DNA from: a virus
Strand: one strand, 5' to 3'
Length of the DNA: 15,272 nt
Virus genome (UHGV): UHGV-0202386
Of this stretch, positions 1-15,272 are shown one piece after another. The translations under genes and the position numbers were made by a program. Every line of letters begins with the position of its first letter. Within the stretch, counting starts at the first letter, position 1. The notes beneath the pieces are model-generated. The model searched no databases and was not told the DNA's origin. It was given only the letters and a program-made list of their open reading frames with translations.

Positions 1-125
1 TCACTGTTGAGGTACATATCAGTAAAGGTCTACCCGGCTTAACGATGGTGGGCTTACCAGAAACAACGGTAAAAGAAGCCCGCGATCGCGTGCGCAGCGC
101 CATTATCAATAGCGGATTTTTATAA
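1..125 (+). pseudogene. comM: comM/yifB 5' fragment, interrupted by the island; frame runs 3 codons into island DNA and stops at TAA 123-125
   Basis: In-frame translation from pos 3 reads [38 protein letters not shown] then FL-stop. This matches the conserved N-terminus of ComM/YifB Mg-chelatase-like ATPases as I recall it. The expected continuation [22 protein letters not shown] is found at the other end of the window. Confidence 0.85.
102..117. repeat. attL core: left copy of the 16-bp junction direct repeat (ATTATCAATAGCGGAT)
   Basis: Same 16-mer with one mismatch at 15134-15149. The left copy is the last stretch of native comM before divergence; the right copy is followed immediately by the comM continuation. 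Confidence 0.65.
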
Positions 126-130
126 ATTAG

Positions 131-240
131 TGTTCTTTGCTGTTTCATAATGTGCCACGTTGTTCGTTATGTTTTTGATTTTTAAACGCATTGCAATTTT
201 TCTTGTTCCAGCTTGTTCCACGTTGTACCCCCTTGTGCAA
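131..240 (+). repeat. Array of about 8 TGTTC/TTGTTC-like motifs with 10-bp periodicity between attL and int
   Basis: TGTTC/TGTTT/TGTGC/TGTTC begin at 131, 141, 151, 161; CTTGTTCCA at 202 and 212, CGTTGTACC at 221, CTTGTGCA at 232. Read directly from the sequence. Confidence 0.6.
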
Positions 241-245
241 TGATC

Positions 246-268
246 GGTGTAGTCACTGGTGTAGTCAT
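246..268 (+). repeat. Tandem decamer GGTGTAGTCA x2 (12-bp spacing), candidate integrase arm-type sites in attL
   Basis: GGTGTAGTCAC 246-256 and GGTGTAGTCAT 258-268. A near-identical tandem pair lies at 15045-15066. Together with TTGTTCCACGTTGT (214-227 / 15013-15026) these form an imperfect direct repeat of about 60 bp just inside both ends. Confidence 0.55.
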
Positions 269-1554: not shown

Positions 1555-1620
1555 ACGGACACAACGTGGAACAACGAGACACAACGACGAACAACAAGGA
1601 ACAAAATGGGACAAGCGGAT
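1555..1620 (-). repeat. Six copies of GAACAACG-like motif exactly 10 bp apart (reverse complement of the TTGTTC motif) between int and alpA
   Basis: ACAACG at 1561, 1571, 1581; ACAACA at 1591; ACAAAA at 1601; ACAAGC at 1611. ACAACGTGGAACAA (1561-1574) is the exact reverse complement of TTGTTCCACGTTGT found at 214-227 and 15013-15026. Confidence 0.6.
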
Positions 1621-1699
1621 TAAAAATCAAACTCATTCATAACCATTTGATTTTTATATGTATACTGTTTTTTTATACACTGGCGAATCACTCTTAAAA

Positions 1700-1734: not shown

Positions 1735-1871
1735 TACTACATCACAATGAATTAAAAGTATTTTTATTCTAATTACCCCATATCTGTAAAACGACCGTCA
1801 CCAATATTTGCCATTCATCACTCTAGCGGGAACAATACGACACAATAAGACACCAAATGACTCTTTGAGAA

Positions 1872-2100: not shown

Positions 2101-2216
2101 CCCATCCACTAACACAGAGATCTAACCATGAATACTGGATATACGCCCGAACAGGGGCGGGGCTTCGTTCGTCCTGGTGAAACTAAAAAGCCATGTTATC
2201 GGGTATTTTCAGGCAT

Positions 2217-2287
2217 AAAAAAAGCGGCCCCGATAAGGAACCGCCTTTCTGAACAATTAACCTGCTGCGAAAAAAATGGATCAGTGC
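2217..2287 (-). ncRNA. Candidate small RNA of about 70 nt: extended -10 promoter to intrinsic terminator, in an ORF-free gap
   Basis: Minus-strand TGaTATAAT (plus 2294-2302) gives a predicted start near 2285-2287. Terminator hairpin at 2224-2248 (AAGGCGG..CCGCUU, about 11 bp with wobbles, 5-nt loop) is followed by U7 (plus A-run 2217-2223). No ORF of 60 aa or more on either strand here except the rejected long + frame. Confidence 0.3.
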
Positions 2288-2293
2288 AGGGGA

Positions 2294-2302
2294 ATTATAT
2301 CA
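2294..2302 (-). promoter_or_regulatory. Extended -10 promoter element TGaTATAAT (minus strand), no convincing -35
   Basis: Reverse complement of plus 2294-2302 reads TGATATAAT. Read directly. Confidence 0.35.
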
Positions 2303-2340
2303 ACCGTGTGGTGAAGCGCCACTATTGCCGGATAACAGGC

Positions 2341-2369
2341 AAAACAAAGGCGACCGCAAAAGGGTCGCC
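2341..2369 (-). terminator. Intrinsic terminator of the leftward RHH operon
   Basis: Perfect 7-bp stem GGCGACC/GGTCGCC (2349-2355 / 2363-2369) with 7-nt loop. On the minus strand it is followed by TTTGTTTTG (plus 2341-2348). Lies 66 nt downstream of the stop of ORF 2436-2609. Confidence 0.55.
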
Positions 2370-2435
2370 AGTGGGAACAAGGGAAAACAAAAGCATCACC
2401 AACAATGCCACATTTGCGGCTGGTGGGCAATGTGA

Positions 2436-2609
2436 TCAGTCAGATTTGGTTCGTTCCAAGGTTTGCAACGAGAGTTTTTTCCTGCGCTCTTTAAGGAATT
2501 TCTCAAGAGCAAACGAACAAGGTGCGAATCTTTCTGATTCATGCTCTATCTTTCTGCGCCGTCTTTTCCGTGTCGGTGATAATGTTTTGGTCAATTCTTT
2601 ATCGGTCAT
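2436..2609 (-). CDS. Hypothetical small basic protein (57 aa), second gene of the leftward operon
   Basis: ORF MTDKELTKTLSPTRKRRRRKIEHESERF..., AGGG 8 nt upstream of ATG 2609. An alternative ATG at 2624 has no RBS. A perfect 7-bp hairpin (2631-2637 / 2651-2657) separates it from the upstream gene. Supported mainly by the downstream terminator; no recognisable family. Confidence 0.35.
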   Translation of the reverse strand: MTDKELTKTLSPTRKRRRRKIEHESERFAPCSFALEKFLKERRKKLSLQTLERTKSD

Positions 2610-2666
2610 TGTGTTGCCCTGCATAGCAATGCGCCGTAATACCTTACACCACGGCGCTGGTGATGG

Positions 2667-2846
2667 TTACTCCTGCTCTTTGGCCTTGCGGCGCTGGCGG
2701 CGTTTGATCTCGCCTTGCATTGACGCAATGATGAATTGTGATGTGCTTTCGCCTGATTCTTTCACTGATTCCATGGCGTTTACTATTTCGTGTGGTACAC
2801 GAGCCTTTAGAGCTTGTGATTTTGCGTTTGTTGTACCCGTTGCCAT
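2667..2846 (-). CDS. Small ribbon-helix-helix (Arc/CopG-like) DNA-binding protein, candidate repressor of the divergent early promoter
   Basis: 59-aa ORF MATGTTNAKSQALKARVPHEIVNAMESVKESGESTSQFIIASMQGEIKRRQRRKAKEQE. By eye: beta strand (KARVP), helix, helix, basic tail. RBS AGAGGA upstream of ATG 2846. Faces a promoter overlapped by direct repeats. Confidence 0.65.
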   Translation of the reverse strand: MATGTTNAKSQALKARVPHEIVNAMESVKESGESTSQFIIASMQGEIKRRQRRKAKEQE

Positions 2847-2907
2847 TTCTATTCCTCTGTTGGATTGGTGGGGGACAGTATACACAGAAAAAGCACAAAT
2901 AAAACCC

Positions 2908-2948
2908 TTGACGTGGGCCACACCTAAAGCATATAGTGGGCCACACCT
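2908..2948 (+). promoter_or_regulatory. Rightward early promoter (-35 TTGACG 2908-2913, 18-bp spacer, -10 TATAGT 2932-2937) overlapped by two 13-bp direct-repeat operators GTGGGCCACACCT
   Basis: Repeat copies at 2913-2925 and 2936-2948 (perfect 13/13, 23-bp spacing), one over the -35/spacer and one over the -10/start. Sits in the divergent region between the RHH gene and the rightward ORF cluster. Confidence 0.5.
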
Positions 2949-2974
2949 TGAGATTGTCAAGGTGCATAAATGCA

Positions 2975-3009
2975 AAGCCCCGCAAGTGTCGTTACCACTC
3001 GCAGGGCTT
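2975..3009. other. Strong stem-loop in the 5' leader of the rightward operon; on the minus strand it reads as hairpin plus UUUGCAUUUAU
   Basis: AAGCCCCGCAAGTG (2975-2988) pairs with CACTCGCAGGGCTT (2996-3009) at 12 of 14 positions, 7-nt loop. No T-run on plus; T-rich tail on minus (plus 2961-2974). Confidence 0.5.
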
Positions 3010-3045
3010 CTAACCACCAACGATAGAAAGTGTATCGAGGTAGCT

Positions 3046-3252
3046 ATGAGAAATTATACCAGACACCCGCAAGGGCGGGACTCGTACAACCTGAATAAAT
3101 ACATCTGGCGTTTTATCGCCCTGAGCACGGCACAACCGCGCGTGATTACCATTGAGGCCACCAGCGAACAGGAAGCGCGTCAGCAATCTCCTGATGGCTG
3201 CGTGATGGTATTCGCTGCCCGTATTCGTCAGGGGGTACGCCATGTGCAATAA
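3046..3252 (+). CDS. Hypothetical protein (68 aa), first gene of the rightward early operon
   Basis: ATG 3046 preceded by GAGGT (3037-3041). Translation MRNYTRHPQGRDSYNLNKYIWRFIALSTAQPRVITIEATSEQEARQQSPDGCVMVFAARIRQGV. A vague resemblance to small Icd/Ash-like satellite proteins is my impression only. Confidence 0.6.
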   Translation: MRNYTRHPQGRDSYNLNKYIWRFIALSTAQPRVITIEATSEQEARQQSPDGCVMVFAARIRQGVRHVQ

Positions 3253-3938: not shown

Positions 3939-4238
3939 ATGAAACTTAAATATTCTGGCTTAACTGCCAGTGGCAACACTCACCCTAAATTTACGCGCGG
4001 CGATATTTACCGCGACCAGTACGGCGGCACGGTAATGATTAAGGGCGTGGAAGAACGGCGCGTAACCTACCGCCGTGAAGGTTACGAATATGATTGCGTG
4101 ATGCCTGTTTATCAGTTCCGGCGTGATTTTTCTCTGGTACAGACCGCGCCGCATAACGTGTCCACCAGCAACGCCAGGGCACGGGCAAACATCCAGAAGC
4201 TGAAAACCATGATTAACGGATTCAGGGGTAAAAAATGA
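3939..4238 (+). CDS. Hypothetical protein (99 aa), possibly DUF4222-like
   Basis: Motif YRDQYGGTVMIKGVEERRVTYRREGYEYDCVMPVYQFRRDF reminds me of DUF4222 proteins of enterobacterial prophages (memory only). Stop overlaps the primase start. Confidence 0.5.
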   Translation: MKLKYSGLTASGNTHPKFTRGDIYRDQYGGTVMIKGVEERRVTYRREGYEYDCVMPVYQFRRDFSLVQTAPHNVSTSNARARANIQKLKTMINGFRGKK

Positions 4239-6049
4239 AACTGGCACCGAACGTAAAACAGCAGTCACGCGGCATAAAACACAAAGAAACAGAAGTCATT
4301 ATTTTTGCGGGTAGTGATGCCTGGTCACACGCAAAACAATGGCAGGAACATGACGCGCGTATGGCCGGAGATAATGAGCCTCCTGTGTGGCTTGGGGAGC
4401 AGCAGTTATCCGAACTGGATAAGCTGCAAATTGTGCCGGAAGGCAGAAAATCCGTGCGCATATTCAGGGCCGGATATCTTGCGCCAGTAATGATAAAGGC
4501 GATTGGTCAGAAGCTGGCGGCGGCAGGCGTACAGGATGCAAATTTTTATCCTGAGGGTATGCACGGTCAGGAGGTGCAGAACTGGCGCGAATATCTGGCC
4601 CGTGAGCGCCAGAATCTTTCTGATGGTCTGGTGATTCAGCTTCCTGTTAAGAAAAAAACAGAAGACAGCGCCGCACCACTGGCGCTTAACCAGATGGGAG
4701 CAAGCCAGCGCGGCGAAGTTCTCCTGGCACATTATGGCGGTGAACTGGCGATTCATGCCGACTCTGACACTGTTCACCATTACAACGGCGTTGTATGGGA
4801 GCCGATTCAGGATAAAGAGTTACAGCGTGCTATGGCGCAGATTTTCATTGATGCGGAGATCAGCTATTCGCAGAACGCCATTAAATCGGCGGTCGATACC
4901 ATGAAGTTAAGTTTGCCTGTAATGGGGAATACAGCCCGTAACCTGATTGGATTCAGTAACGGGGTATTTGATACCAGAACAGGTAATTTTCGGGAGCATA
5001 ACAAAAACGACTGGTTGTTAATTGCCAGTGAATTACCTTTCAGCCCACCAGCAGAGGGGGAAACGCTGGCAACACATGCGCCGAATTTCTGGAAGTGGTT
5101 ACGCTGCTCGGTGGCAGAGAATGACCGCAAGACGGATCGCGTGCTGGCTGCATTATTCATGGTGCTGGCGAACCGGTACGACTGGCAGTTATTCATTGAG
5201 GTAACAGGTCCAGGGGGAAGTGGTAAAAGCGTGATGGCGGAGATTTGCACTATGCTGGCGGGTAAGGCCAACACAGTATCGGCAAGCATGAAGGCGCTGG
5301 AAGATGCAAGGGAACGCGCGTTAGTGGTTGGCTTTTCGCTGATTATCATGCCGGATATGACCCGCTACGCTGGTGATGGCGCAGGAATTAAGGCCATTAC
5401 AGGCGGTGACAAGGTGGCAATCGACCCGAAGCATAAAGCCCCCTACTCAACACGCATTCAGGCGGTCGTGCTGGCGGTGAACAATAACGCCATGTCATTC
5501 AGTGACCGCAGCGGGGGGATCTCACGTCGTCGGGTGATATTCAATTTTTCGGAGGTTGTACCGGAGAACGAGCGCGACCCCATGCTGGCAGAAAAAATAG
5601 AAGGAGAGCTGGCGGTTGTGATTCGCCATCTGCTTACTCGTTTTTCTGACCAGGACGAAGCTAAACGCCTGCTGTATGAGCAGCAGAAATCAGAAGAAGC
5701 TCTGGTGATAAAACGCGAGGGCGATTCGCTGGTGGACTTCTGTGGCTATCTCATGTCGTCGGTAATGTGTGATGGTCTGTTAGTGGGTAATGCCGAAATT
5801 ATTCCGTTCAGTCCGCGCAGGTATCTTTATCACGCCTATCTGGCATATATGAGGGCACACGGATTCGGTAAACCTGTAACACTGACGCGCTTCGGTAAAG
5901 ATATGCCGGGGGCAATGGCGGAATATGGCAGGGAGTATATAAAACGGAAAACGAAGCACGGTTTGCGTTCAAATGTGACACTGACAGAGGATTCAGAAGA
6001 CTGGATGCCATCATGTGCATCGGTCACAAATGACGACAGCAAAAATTAA
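4235..6049 (+). CDS. Replication initiator: P4-alpha-like primase / SF3 helicase (Walker A GPGGSGKS)
   Basis: 604-aa ORF. Walker A in VTGPGGSGKSVMAE, Walker B-like LIIMPDM, sensor AVVLAVNNN. Followed directly by TGTTCACC iterons, as for P4 alpha and its ori. Confidence 0.8.
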   Translation: MKLAPNVKQQSRGIKHKETEVIIFAGSDAWSHAKQWQEHDARMAGDNEPPVWLGEQQLSELDKLQIVPEGRKSVRIFRAGYLAPVMIKAIGQKLAAAGVQDANFYPEGMHGQEVQNWREYLARERQNLSDGLVIQLPVKKKTEDSAAPLALNQMGASQRGEVLLAHYGGELAIHADSDTVHHYNGVVWEPIQDKELQRAMAQIFIDAEISYSQNAIKSAVDTMKLSLPVMGNTARNLIGFSNGVFDTRTGNFREHNKNDWLLIASELPFSPPAEGETLATHAPNFWKWLRCSVAENDRKTDRVLAALFMVLANRYDWQLFIEVTGPGGSGKSVMAEICTMLAGKANTVSASMKALEDARERALVVGFSLIIMPDMTRYAGDGAGIKAITGGDKVAIDPKHKAPYSTRIQAVVLAVNNNAMSFSDRSGGISRRRVIFNFSEVVPENERDPMLAEKIEGELAVVIRHLLTRFSDQDEAKRLLYEQQKSEEALVIKREGDSLVDFCGYLMSSVMCDGLLVGNAEIIPFSPRRYLYHAYLAYMRAHGFGKPVTLTRFGKDMPGAMAEYGREYIKRKTKHGLRSNVTLTEDSEDWMPSCASVTNDDSKN

Positions 6050-6062
6050 ACTTATGGAATAA

Positions 6063-6293
6063 CTGTTCACCACTGTTCACCCTGTTATAAATATCTTTTA
6101 TATCAGTACATTATAGGGTGAACAGTTATTTGTGAACTGTTCACCAAACTATTCACTGTTCACCTTTTTGATTATTTATTGAGCTTTAAGGGTGAACAGT
6201 GGTGAACAGTTGGTGAATAGTTTTTGTGAAACTGTTCACCCCTTAACGTTATGAATAAAAAGGGAAAATCTCAAAAGGTGAACAGGTGAAGGG
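6063..6293. repeat. Origin of replication: about 11 copies of the 9-mer CTGTTCACC (P4 type-I iteron TGTTCACC) in both orientations
   Basis: Plus-orientation copies at 6063, 6073, 6137, 6156, 6232; reverse-orientation GGTGAACAG at 6117, 6191, 6201, 6277, with variants at 6212 and 6285. AT-rich spacers. Lies immediately downstream of the primase. Confidence 0.8.
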
Positions 6294-7040: not shown

Positions 7041-7571
7041 ATGACAACGCTGACCATTAACCGGAAGCCGAAAGGCATTTACGGCACGCCGCAGAAAACG
7101 ACGCAGGCGGCGCAAGAGCAGGATAAAACCACATCGGTGCATAAAGTGATACCCGGCAATCAGAACGCACAGCAGAAGCCCACAGGGGCGACACCGTGGC
7201 AGCATATGACCAAAAGGCAGCGCAAAAACCGCCGACGCGTTAACCGCCTCACTGAGATGTGGCCTGACTTATTCAGCCATAAAGCACCGAAGCCGCTTAA
7301 GGTGGGGATATTCGACGACCTGATGCAGGATATCGCCGTCAGGGGGCTGGCATTCGGGTCGGGGGTATTACGTGCGACGCTGGCATCCTATGCGCAGTCT
7401 CCGCGCTATTACCGCGCCCTGATAGCTGGTGGCGCACGTTACGACCTGAAGGGCCAGCCATGTGGGGAAGTGACACCACAGGAACAGCAGGAGGCAGAAA
7501 CACGGCTGATGGTGCTGAATGAGAAGCACAAGCGCCAGCGCCGGGCAGCAAAGGGGGATACATGCCAGTGA
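7041..7571 (+). CDS. ProQ/FinO-domain RNA-binding protein (FinO-like RNA chaperone)
   Basis: PKPLKVGIFDDLMQDIAVRG...LRATLASYAQSPRYYRALIAGGARYDLKGQPCGEVTPQEQQEA aligns by eye to the ProQ/FinO core (PLKIGIFQDL...[35 protein letters not shown]). Lys/Gln-rich N-terminal extension. RBS AGGGGAAGG. Confidence 0.8.
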   Translation: MTTLTINRKPKGIYGTPQKTTQAAQEQDKTTSVHKVIPGNQNAQQKPTGATPWQHMTKRQRKNRRRVNRLTEMWPDLFSHKAPKPLKVGIFDDLMQDIAVRGLAFGSGVLRATLASYAQSPRYYRALIAGGARYDLKGQPCGEVTPQEQQEAETRLMVLNEKHKRQRRAAKGDTCQ

Positions 7572-7810: not shown

Positions 7811-7820
7811 AGCGATAAAG

Positions 7821-7847
7821 GCCCGGATTTTTTCCGGGTCTTTTTTC
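7821..7847 (+). terminator. Rho-independent terminator ending the early/replication operon
   Basis: GCCCGGA-TTTTT-TCCGGGTC hairpin (7821-7840) followed by TTTTTT (7841-7847). Confidence 0.8.
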
Positions 7848-7864
7848 AGGTTTTGTAAATTATT

Positions 7865-7890
7865 TGTTCGTGGTTGTTCCAGGTTGTTCG
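7865..7890 (+). repeat. Three TTGTTC motifs exactly 10 bp apart, upstream of the capsid operon
   Basis: TTGTTC at 7865, 7875, 7885 (TTGTTCGTGG / TTGTTCCAGG / TTGTTCGGTG). Same motif family as the arrays at 131-240, 1555-1620 and 15001-15030. Confidence 0.6.
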
Positions 7891-7980
7891 GTGATTCTGG
7901 TTGATGTTTACATACTGATTTTTATGTATATGTTGGCGTGTGGCACTCAGACGTGAGCCGCCACAATGCCGCCTGATCCC

Positions 7981-8083: not shown

Positions 8084-9229
8084 ATGAAGAAATTAATCGA
8101 ACTCCGCCAGCAAAAAACCGCCCTGAAAAACCAGATGCGATCCCTGCTGGAAAAAGCCGACAGTGAAAACCGCAGTCTAACCGATGACGAAGGCAAACAG
8201 TTTGATGAACTGCGTGCAAAAGCCGATTCCCTCGACACAGAAATTTCCCGCCTCGAGTCTGTGGCTGATGAAGAACGTAACCAGCCTGGTGTTCCCGTCG
8301 AAGATAAAATCACCAAAAATGAGCTACGCTCTTACATTCTGACCGGGGAAACCCGCAACCTGTCCGGCAGTGTTCCGGCTGATGGTGGTTATACGGTTAT
8401 CCCGGAACTGAACAGAGAAATTATGCGTCAGCTTTCTGATGAGTCGGTGATGCGTAAAATCTGTACTGTTAAAACCATTCACAGTAATGAATTTAAGCAA
8501 CTGGTTTCTGCCGGGGGTGCGGTCGTGGGACACGGCGAAGAAGGTGCGGCACGTAACCAGACGGCAACCCCAAAACTGAATGAAGTCAGTATCCGCCTGT
8601 ATCCGATCTACGCTTACCCGAAAACCACTCAGGAAATTATCGATTTTTCCGAAGTCGATATTATGGGCTGGTTATCTTCTGAAATTGGCGACACTTTCGT
8701 TGATACCGAAGAAACGGATCTGGTTTCCGGTGATGGCGAGAAAAAAGCCAAAGGTTTCCTGACTTTCCCGCGCGCTACGGATAATGACAAAACCCGTCCT
8801 TTCGGTACGCTCCAGACGAAAAAAGTGACTGGCAGTCTCAGCGCCGATATGCTGATTGACCTGAAATTTACGCTGCGCAATAAGTACCGCAAAAAAGCTG
8901 TATGGGTGATGAACTCAAATACAGCCGCCTCCGCACAAAAACTGAAAAATGCCACTGGTGATTACATCTGGCGCGATCGTTTACAGGCTGGTGATCCTGA
9001 TTCTCTGCTGGGGCTTCCGGTTGAATATCTGGAATTTATGCCGGACGGTGTGATTGCAGTCGGTGACTTTAAGCGCGGTTATTTCATCGTTGACCATAAA
9101 ACCGGTACGCGTACCCGTCCGGATTTCAGCGAGCCTGGATTCATTAACATCTATACCCAGAAATATCTGGGCGGTGGTGTGGTGGATTCGAACGCCATCA
9201 AGATTCTGGAAATTCAGGCTGGCAAGTAA
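8084..9229 (+). CDS. HK97-family major capsid protein with N-terminal coiled-coil delta/scaffold domain
   Basis: 381 aa. N-terminal about 70 aa is charged coiled-coil (ELRQQKTALKNQMRSLLEKADSENRSL..). C-terminal motifs LLGLPVEYLEFMP..GDFKRGYFIVDHKTG...YLGGGVVDSNAIKILE are typical of Phage_capsid (HK97 fold). Confidence 0.85.
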   Translation: MKKLIELRQQKTALKNQMRSLLEKADSENRSLTDDEGKQFDELRAKADSLDTEISRLESVADEERNQPGVPVEDKITKNELRSYILTGETRNLSGSVPADGGYTVIPELNREIMRQLSDESVMRKICTVKTIHSNEFKQLVSAGGAVVGHGEEGAARNQTATPKLNEVSIRLYPIYAYPKTTQEIIDFSEVDIMGWLSSEIGDTFVDTEETDLVSGDGEKKAKGFLTFPRATDNDKTRPFGTLQTKKVTGSLSADMLIDLKFTLRNKYRKKAVWVMNSNTAASAQKLKNATGDYIWRDRLQAGDPDSLLGLPVEYLEFMPDGVIAVGDFKRGYFIVDHKTGTRTRPDFSEPGFINIYTQKYLGGGVVDSNAIKILEIQAGK

Positions 9230-14799: not shown

Positions 14800-15000
14800 G
14801 AAAAATTGCATTCAGGAGGTGGGATCGAAATCCCTACAACCCATTGCTTATGGGACTGCCCGCCCCGTCAAATTTTTACACCCGCGAAAAATACTTCAAG
14901 CTGGTGGGCATGATGCCGATATGGGGATCCCCATGTCGACATTAACGCCCCTCATGAATTGGCGTGCTTCCCCCTGGAAAGATGACCCGCCTGTATATTT

Positions 15001-15066
15001 CTTGTGTCTATTTGTTCCACGTTGTTTCATACAGTGCACCGAACGGTGTAGTTACTGGTGTAGTCA
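15001..15066 (+). repeat. Right-arm copy of the terminal repeat: 3 phased TTGT motifs, TTGTTCCACGTTGT, and tandem GGTGTAGTTA/GGTGTAGTCA
   Basis: TTGT at 15002, 15012, 15022. TTGTTCCACGTTGT 15013-15026 is identical to 214-227. GGTGTAGTTACTGGTGTAGTCAT 15045-15067 versus left GGTGTAGTCACTGGTGTAGTCAT 246-268. Confidence 0.6.
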
Positions 15067-15133
15067 TTTTGCGATTTTTAAAGTTATCTAAGATATTATT
15101 TGTCATTTAAATTCAATTGGTTATGAGTACTTG

Positions 15134-15149
15134 ATTATAAATAGCGGAT
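15134..15149. repeat. attR core: right copy of the 16-bp junction repeat (ATTATAAATAGCGGAT)
   Basis: 15 of 16 identical to 102-117. comM sequence resumes in frame from here. Confidence 0.65.
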
Positions 15150-15272
15150 ATGAATATCCGGCGAAAAAAATCACCATCAATCTGGCTCCAGCCGATCTGC
15201 CAAAAGAAGGGGGACGATATGATTTACCTATCGCCATTGCGTTGCTGGCGGCCTCAGAACAGCTTACAGCCA
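15140..15272 (+). pseudogene. comM: comM/yifB continuation (3' part, runs off the window), separated from its 5' end by the island
   Basis: In-frame translation [44 protein letters not shown] continues the ComM N-terminal domain begun at 1-116. The frame is closed upstream by TAA 15089-15091, with no ATG or RBS before the junction. Confidence 0.8.

Follow-up and report, generated by a model that had tools for sequence, protein, structure and literature searches.

Putative doubled integrase arm-type sites and phased TTGT arrays in the attachment region of a capsid-forming phage satellite of Escherichia coli

The attP site of phage lambda is recognized by a heterobivalent integrase; its core is flanked on either side, over about 150 bp, by arm sites, which are accompanied by sites for the recombination directionality factor (RDF). 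As a rule, an RDF recognizes directly repeated sites separated by one helical turn, and some RDFs, for example Apl, have a further role at promoters (PMC7498355). In the P2/186 group the arm-site consensus is clade-specific (tgTGGaCa versus tgccGCCActt) and is paired with discriminating residues in the N-domain of the integrase (Int), and the core-binding part of Int varies with the integration site (PMC3448106). In KplE1, the RDF TorI binds units of the GTTCG/GATCG type, three of them 10 bp apart beside the IntS P' sites over the intS promoter, with a second block nearer the core (PMC2951348). Among the phage-inducible chromosomal islands (PICIs), the helper-embedded PICIs (HE-PICIs) carry tgTGTATTGCantgTGTATTGCa 81 +/- 2 bp upstream of the attP centre and a co-oriented copy 132 +/- 2 bp downstream of it (Mageeney et al., NAR Genom Bioinform 2023, PMC10111431). 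This motif was reported as unique to HE-PICIs, and its binder, whether the arm domain of the integrase, AlpA or another protein, was left open (PMC10111431). AlpA is known as a master activator in Gram-negative PICIs, and alpA of the capsid-forming PICI (cf-PICI) EcCIEDL933 is essential for induction and transfer (bioRxiv 10.1101/2022.09.08.507074). Here we describe the attachment region of a cf-PICI, a phage satellite integrated in yifB of E. coli and contained in a stretch of 15,272 nucleotides (UHGV virus genome UHGV-0202386; this whole stretch is called the window below).

Just inside both ends of the island, positions 196-271 and 14995-15070 form a co-oriented direct repeat without gaps (offset 14799, 78% identity; family D1 of the repeat search). 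This repeat is composite, two types of site standing side by side in each arm: a doubled unit of 12 bp and TTGT units phased at 10 bp. The explanation that best accounts for the observations as a whole, to which we give a probability of roughly 0.8, is that the doubled GGTGTAGTYA decamers would be arm sites of the integrase N-domain and the TTGT arrays most likely AlpA sites.

The best gapless window of 58 nt between the first and the last 300 nt of the island starts at 213 and 15012 and matches at 47 of 58 positions, compared with 29.2 +/- 1.4 matches per best 58-nt window in Markov-1 randomised sequences (n = 300, maximum 38). A reading of the same DNA made earlier from its letters and open reading frames only (the sequence-only reading) had placed a same-orientation repeat at 211-268 and 15011-15067, between 65 and 150 bp inside the core repeats. 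Its coordinates were off by only 1-2 nt, and its distances come close to those measured here from the repeat to the core AATAGCGGAT, namely 94-150 bp at the left end and 74-130 bp at the right end. The two copies of the core lie at 109-118 (+), within the split yifB, for attL and at 15141-15150 (+) for attR.

The doubled unit has the form GGTGTAGTYAnT, repeated twice with a period of 12 bp, and is confined to the two arms. Exact copies of the decamer start at 246, 258, 15045 and 15057, all on the + strand, and no other exact copy exists in the window; tolerating at most one mismatch raises the count to six against 1.05 expected, and none of 200 shuffled sequences reaches six. The putative doubled arm-type site of the int-proximal P' arm occupies 246-267 (+; GGTGTAGTCACT GGTGTAGTCA), 127 bp past the core and 36 bp ahead of the int start codon. 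Its counterpart in the int-distal P arm occupies 15045-15066 (+; GGTGTAGTTACT GGTGTAGTCA) and ends 74 bp from the core. Both are repeated sites that do not resemble the core, flank it within the DNA of the element and are absent from attB, as is usual for arm-type sites. The remainder of the repeat, with exact copies of TTGTTCCACGTTGT at 213-226 and 15012-15025, is of the other type. The sequence-only reading, which regarded the whole repeat of about 60 bp as clusters of arm sites, is supported with one refinement: the TTGTTCCACGTTGT part belongs to a site type also found at promoters far from att, and is more likely an AlpA site than an integrase site.

Two other kinds of repeat were considered for these sequences and rejected. 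Transposon-like terminal repeats do not fit, the copies being direct rather than inverted and lying 74-127 bp inside the junctions. Neither do replication iterons, as the iteron-like repeats of the island are found at 6048-6262 and have a different sequence.

We compared the window with four E. coli islands having related integrases: a cf-PICI in tqsA (L001, core ATAACAGCA), a cf-PICI between roxA and phoQ (L002, core GGACATATTT), an 11-kb PICI in tqsA with a different late module devoid of portal and TerL (L003), and a PICI between yljB and clpS whose Int and AlpA are 75% and 61% identical to those of the window (L004). In all four, each arm contains two copies of GGTGTAGTYA(A/C)T, co-oriented and preceded by phased TTGT(T/C) units. 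The same doubled decamer is thus associated with four different cores (yifB, tqsA, roxA/phoQ and yljB/clpS), a conservation despite the change of core and attB that is expected of arm sites in elements sharing an integrase. The decamers are invariant although the flanking arm sequence, the core and the cargo have diverged, and their presence in all four relatives indicates that the arm module is retained while core, target gene and cargo change. In IMG/VR, 93 stretches were found to contain the doubled motif, placed either 46-58 bp ahead of int or at the opposite end of the element; wherever int is included, the encoded integrase is at least 75% identical to that of the window. The sequence-only reading had proposed that its assignment be judged by whether the decamer is missing from relatives with the same integrase; it is kept both in L001-L004 and in the int-bearing IMG/VR stretches.

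The geometry of the excised form is equally constant. In attP sites rebuilt from the two ends, the starts of the doubled sites are 233 bp apart in the window, 233 bp in L001, 233 bp in L002 and 232 bp in L004. One contig (L031) is a circularly permuted copy of the tqsA-type island in which right arm, core and left arm are contiguous (1-270), with a spacing of exactly 233 bp. Contiguous attP sites were also found in viral and metagenome contigs, with spacings of 232 bp (L023), 232 bp (L276), 233 bp (L355, 2934-3186) and 233 bp (L370, 2792-3044). These five contigs are excised circles or concatemers of PICIs belonging to three motif classes. The start-to-start spacing is 232-235 bp in all rebuilt or observed attP sites; the right arms of the genome loci mostly lie beyond the 10-kb flank and were verified through viral contigs instead. 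The arrangement foreseen earlier, in which excision brings the two copies to either side of the core as P and P' arms, can thus be seen directly in the sibling circular contig and is reflected in the fixed spacing.

These data also bear on the possibility that the repeat arose by chance or is a functionless relic of a duplication. Nothing speaks for this except the modest 78% identity of the whole 76-nt repeat; the similarity is far above that of shuffled sequences, the decamers are invariant and the geometry is fixed. Conservation effectively refutes it.

Which protein reads the doubled unit was approached through covariation. Further loci were collected by a scan for the HE-PICI motif, a search by integrase alignment in one genome per species and a scan for a third motif, giving 134 int loci with a complete integrase and enough upstream sequence. 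A doubled unit lies 30-84 bp upstream of int in 127 of them, with a period of 12 bp, or of 11 bp in the clade of 28-32% integrase identity. The units fall into the classes GTGTAGTY, GTGTATCA, TGTATAAAC, TGTATTGC, GGGGTACATG and GTGTACA. The spacing of the doubled sites is 232-235 bp in the TGTATTGC class, 232 bp for GTGTATCA (L276), 233 bp for TGTATAAAC (L355 and L370) and 232-233 bp in the class of the window.

We then asked how well protein identity separates pairs of loci of the same and of different motif class, using 85 unique combinations of Int N-domain, AlpA and motif class. The area under the receiver operating characteristic curve (AUC) for a shared class was 0.969 for Int residues 1-100 (IntN), 0.762 for Int residues 101 to the end and 0.783 for AlpA, values which are descriptive and not probabilities, since the sequences are related and the classes were defined by the analyst. 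Natural exchanges point in the same direction. L220-L222 (GTGTAGTC) and L231 (GTGTATCAC) have Int parts from residue 101 to the end that are 87-90% identical and IntN parts that are 66-72% identical, and what distinguishes L221 from L231 lies within the beta-sheet part as predicted (residues ~11-62), the two being nearly alike over residues 63-105. The most class-informative columns of the integrase correspond to positions 24-26, 31, 42, 48 and 60 of the window protein. Descriptively, and on related sequences, the unit follows the N-terminal domain much more closely than it follows AlpA or the rest of Int. The direction of the comparison is clear: judged by these sequences, the doubled unit goes with the arm-binding domain of the integrase and not with AlpA or the catalytic part. 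The decamer GGTGTAGTYA, singled out by the sequence-only reading as the best candidate for the integrase arm site, is very probably just that, given its conservation in the Int clade and the way the motif follows the N-domain.

The authors who described the HE-PICI motif left open the option that AlpA binds it, and the same could be envisaged for the doubled GGTGTAGTYA units. AlpA is encoded beside int in nearly all these elements, and proteins of the AlpA family can be RDFs binding att arms (PMC10111431), a role to which the PHROG annotation also points. However, AlpA proteins that are 95-97% identical occur with two different motifs, TGTATAAAC in L243, L240 and L244 and GTGTATCA in L247, both verified in both arms or in a contiguous attP, and the IntN parts of these loci are only 59-63% identical. 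Conversely, one and the same motif is accompanied by AlpA proteins only 28-44% identical. AlpA predicts the motif class much less well than IntN (AUC 0.78 versus 0.97), and the alpA and capsid promoters, at which one would look for the sites of a regulator, lack the decamer. Binding of the doubled units by AlpA appears improbable to us.

The position of the left copy, always 30-84 bp upstream of the int start codon, allows another explanation, according to which the doubled units serve mainly as an operator of int for a regulator of the island or of the helper phage, the copy at the right end being a by-product. The equivalent region of KplE1 is indeed the intS promoter (PMC2951348). Yet the second copy is 10-15 kb away with no gene downstream of it, the motif tracks the integrase N-domain, and a promoter role leaves unexplained why the spacing of 232-235 bp across the core is fixed in four motif classes. 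We hold such a primary operator function to be unlikely; as an additional function it is compatible with arm sites for the integrase, KplE1 being a case in which int is autoregulated through arm sites that overlie its promoter.

The arms may also be bent by host proteins. An integration host factor (IHF)-like site with one mismatch is present at 168-180 (-; AATCAAAAACATA); it is found at the same position in L001-L003 and counts as weak evidence. A second one, also with one mismatch, is present at 15111-15123 (+; ATTCAATTGGTTA), and at its place the relatives L001 and L002 have the exact consensus (AATCAATGTGTTA and AATCAATGGGTTG, respectively). As attP arms generally hold sites for host factors, and weak IHF-like matches occur elsewhere in these arms, the doubled units themselves could be thought of as bound by an arm-bending host factor such as IHF, Fis or a similar protein. 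But the decamer is unlike the IHF consensus WATCAANNNNTTR, and different motif classes are found within the same host genera: E. coli has GTGTAGTY, with TGTATTGC in enterobacterial/E. coli-type prophage contigs, and Klebsiella has both TGTATAAAC and GTGTATCA. A host factor would not vary its site from element to element, which makes this explanation highly improbable.

The second type of site found in the arms consists of TTGT units in 10-bp phase. Four of them, candidate AlpA/RDF sites, lie in the int-proximal arm at 203-242 (+; TTGTTCCAGC TTGTTCCACG TTGTACCCCC TTGTGCAATG) and three in the int-distal arm at 15002-15031 (+). Six units in the opposite orientation occupy 1555-1614 (-) in the spacer between int and alpA, and three more lie at 7864-7893 (+), about 190 bp upstream of the capsid gene, which starts at 8084. 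These four runs of at least three TTGT units at 10-bp phase compare with 0.01 expected, and no such run at periods of 7-9 or 11-13 bp was found in the window. Two further phased units at 1826-1850 (-) overlap the predicted alpA promoter (TTGCCA-17-AACAAT, 1808-1836). Closer to the core, a block of three degenerate TGT units with the same phase at 141-170 (+; TGTTTCATAA TGTGCCACGT TGTTCGTTAT; repeat family D4) represents further candidate RDF/AlpA sites; it is weaker than the arrays and is conserved as three TGTT units in L001 and L003.

The four locations of the TTGT arrays in the window recur in the islands L001 and L002 (both arms, the minus strand of the int-alpA spacer, and upstream of the capsid gene, where they are found at 23653 in L001 and 23729 in L002), and none was detected in the flanking chromosome of these two islands (roughly 19 kb per locus). 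The arrays thus have the layout known for RDF sites, that is, direct repeats one helical turn apart, next to arm-type sites in the arms and also at promoters. AlpA is the only excisionase-type protein encoded by the island and, as mentioned, a known PICI master activator; by analogy we lean somewhat towards the TTGT arrays being sites at which AlpA would act as excisionase and activator. An array beside the doubled site is clear in the clade of the window, in the Vibrio class and in part of the clade of 30% identity; as it is not seen in all motif classes, we make no claim of generality.

Other features of these regions deserve mention. A terminator-like hairpin at 7818-7844 is located just ahead of the array at 7864-7893, and the region 7818-7893 is a candidate AlpA-dependent control point of the packaging operon. 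The int-alpA spacer (1555-1655) resembles the right arm (15002-15126) in inverted orientation: its TTGT array at 1558-1584 and its segment 1637-1654 show 89% complementarity each, to 15002-15028 and to 15109-15126, respectively. The spacer contains an exact IHF consensus at 1640-1652 (-) but not the integrase decamer, and has the appearance of a copy, for regulatory use, of the arm portion with RDF and IHF sites.

Several observations weigh against the interpretation proposed here for the two types of site. Beyond the relatedness of the compared sequences and the analyst-defined classes, the separation by IntN is imperfect, with different-class pairs reaching 72% identity and same-class pairs descending to 50%. 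The AlpA of each locus was chosen automatically by taking the top tblastn match downstream of int, although two or three paralogues exist at some loci. The attribution of the TTGT arrays to AlpA is drawn solely from analogy and from the distribution of the sites, and under a strict test the array beside the doubled site is degenerate or absent in the TGTATTGC, TGTATAAAC and GTGTATCA classes. The exact IHF consensus occurs twice in the window, not above chance, and in neither arm. Finally, no promoter was found by a sigma-70 consensus scan between the core and int, so that autoregulation of int is something we infer.

Taken as a mechanism, the four co-oriented decamers, two per arm, would be bound by the Arm-DNA-bind_3 domain of the island integrase. 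Excision would join the ends of the island such that the doubled sites come to lie on either side of the 10-bp core, one about 74 bp upstream and the other 127 bp downstream of it, with their starts 233 bp apart. Following the lambda, P2 and KplE1 paradigm, the bent arms would be gripped by the four arm domains of an integrase tetramer during recombination of the cores by the C-terminal domains, and the A/T-rich spacers with the IHF-like sites at 168-180 and 15111-15123 could let the arms bend back towards the core. From the phased arrays, AlpA might act as the recombination directionality factor at the arms and as a regulator of the alpA and capsid-operon promoters. Integrase bound to the int-proximal doublet probably autoregulates int, as in KplE1, since this doublet lies 36 bp from the int start codon.

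A wider proposal can be formulated, which we regard as tentative, with the odds slightly against it in its full form. A single rigid attP scaffold may be common to the DUF4102-type integrases of Gram-negative PICIs and related integrases, with two co-oriented doubled arm sites whose starts are 232-235 bp apart and a core placed off-centre. Exchanges limited to the beta-sheet part of the N-domain (residues ~10-62) would have re-set arm specificity on at least five or six occasions, independently of changes in core specificity, and the phased TTGT arrays would make AlpA a single switch coupling excision to activation of the capsid operon. If true, this would provide orthogonal recombination modules for co-resident satellites and a simple code, relating positions 24-26, 31, 42, 48 and 60 to the four nucleotides after TGTA, for designing arm-site specificity. 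This pattern of one scaffold with arm-site classes re-set via the N-domain and an independently changing core is the most interesting by-product of the analysis. The layout also extends beyond PICIs: in L279-L297, whose Int proteins are similar to Stx-phage integrases and 28-32% identical to that of the window, GTGTACA-type units with an 11-bp period occur about 30-50 bp upstream of int and are often preceded by GTTC units in 10-bp phase.

The identity of the element follows from its site and its gene set. The two halves of yifB are found at 1-117 and 15151-15272; thousands of complete E. coli genomes with an empty yifB site match 1-117 only, and related islands match from 118 on. The yifB gene (a comM homologue) is split by the island and not restored (1-125 and 15141-15272); its upstream frame stops three codons past the crossover (...SGFL*), and the remnant is labelled magnesium chelatase domain protein (H1) in RefSeq. 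All island genes are on the + strand. They comprise int, alpA, DUF4222, a D5-type primase/helicase, SSB and ProQ/FinO, followed by a late module identified with Pfam and composed of major capsid, prohead protease, portal, connector, HNH, TerS and TerL. The island is about 15 kb long and has no tail or lysis genes. The combination of an int-alpA-primase module with its own genes from capsid to TerL, in the absence of tail and lysis genes, identifies it as a cf-PICI of the EcCIEDL933 type.

The tyrosine integrase (304-1533, +) consists of an N-terminal Arm-DNA-bind_3 domain (amino acids 8-95; PF13356, E=4e-18) and a catalytic domain (PF00589, E=1.3e-16); its residues 8-95 match the N-domain of a CP4-like integrase (PDB 3jtz), so that it has the separate N-terminal arm-binding domain of heterobivalent integrases. 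With the P4-type integrases, to which the sequence-only reading referred, it shares the domain architecture (Arm-DNA-bind_3 plus Phage_integrase). Its best matches among the integrases of the phage collection do not exceed 50% identity, most of them being of Stx-phage type with 28-31%. AlpA (1872-2075, +) matches PF05930 (E=3.4e-18), PHROG 2790 'excisionase and transcriptional regulator' (E=8e-18) and PDB 8c3t of the AlpA family, and is the sole excisionase/regulator-type gene product of the island.

Some additional features of the island are worth recording. Dense direct and inverted repeats of the GGTGAACAGT type lie at 6048-6262, directly downstream of the primase/helicase gene (4235-6049), and are probably the iterons of the island replication origin. 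A ProQ/FinO-domain gene is present at 7041-7571, at a position where the sibling cf-PICIs L001 and L002 have a PerC-family regulator, which represents an accessory-gene swap between otherwise similar satellites. The open reading frame at 2128-3252 encodes 374 amino acids and is without a match in Pfam; over its C-terminal ~85 residues it resembles 'transcriptional repressor' families of PHROG, and genes at this position in relatives are annotated as Icd-like cell-division inhibitors. Finally, a right-arm block of 80 bp at 14922-15001 (no strand assigned) is nearly invariant among cf-PICIs with different cores. It opens with the palindrome GGGGATCCCC, is partly deleted in L003 and is absent from L004. 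A scan of the whole window against Rfam at gathering thresholds gave no match, indicating that the block is no known RNA.

Arm-type sites are textbook knowledge, and for one PICI clade the literature already contains a doubled attP motif with precisely this geometry, so the finding is in itself an ordinary one. In the literature on arm sites of PICIs and cf-PICIs we found only the HE-PICI study (PMC10111431), and no earlier account of GGTGTAGTYA sites or of cf-PICI arms. What the analysis adds is the att architecture of capsid-forming PICIs and their classical E. coli relatives, elements that use several attB sites; the placing of the published "unique" HE-PICI motif as one among several cognate classes on a common scaffold; and comparative evidence on the open question of integrase arm domain versus AlpA, which favours the integrase. 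In practice, the doubled unit together with the spacing of 233 bp marks the ends of PICIs and their excised circles precisely in genomes and viromes, and the correspondence between motif class and N-domain suggests which integrases could cross-react in strains harbouring several satellites.

The gene organisation described for EcCIEDL933 is matched by the sibling island in roxA/phoQ, which the window resembles. The attP of the window is closest in form to that of the HE-PICIs: both have a tandem doubled unit with a 12-bp period in two co-oriented copies, the sites of the window lying ~80 and ~132 bp from the core centre with a spacing of 233 bp (232-235 bp in the TGTATTGC class), and in both the motif stands just upstream of an int-alpA pair with a DUF4102-type integrase. 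However, the units differ past the common TGTA (GGTGTAGTYA versus TGTGTATTGC), the integrase of the window is just 40-45% identical to those encoded beside TGTATTGC motifs, and its target is the chromosomal gene yifB, whereas HE-PICIs target a prophage late gene. As unit, integrase clade and target all differ, the window is not an HE-PICI.

KplE1 (CPS-53) offers the nearest parallel for the arrangement of the two types of site. Its int also reads away from attL, so that the arm overlaps the region upstream of int, and three RDF-type units spaced at 10 bp stand beside the arm-type sites, with a second block nearer the core; the block at 141-170 of the window parallels the two TorI blocks of KplE1 attL. 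Unlike the sites of the window, which are deduced from sequence, the P'1/P'2 and TorI sites were defined by footprinting and mutagenesis (PMC2951348); moreover, the IntS arm sites have another sequence and KplE1 integrates in the tRNA gene argW. A comparison of AlpA with PDB sequences returned only 8c3t of the AlpA family, TorI and lambda Xis not being among the matches, and the parallel with TorI therefore concerns site architecture rather than protein homology. The P2/186 phages differ in integrase family, motifs and RDFs (Cox/Apl). Lambda shares the heterobivalent integrase, the arm sites flanking the core and the RDF sites adjoining them, but has five arm sites (P1, P2, P'1-P'3) rather than two identical doublets, and its int promoter lies outside attP. 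Overall, the attP of the window appears to be functionally a classical attP of a heterobivalent integrase, as in lambda, P2/186 and KplE1, built structurally on the scaffold described for the HE-PICIs.

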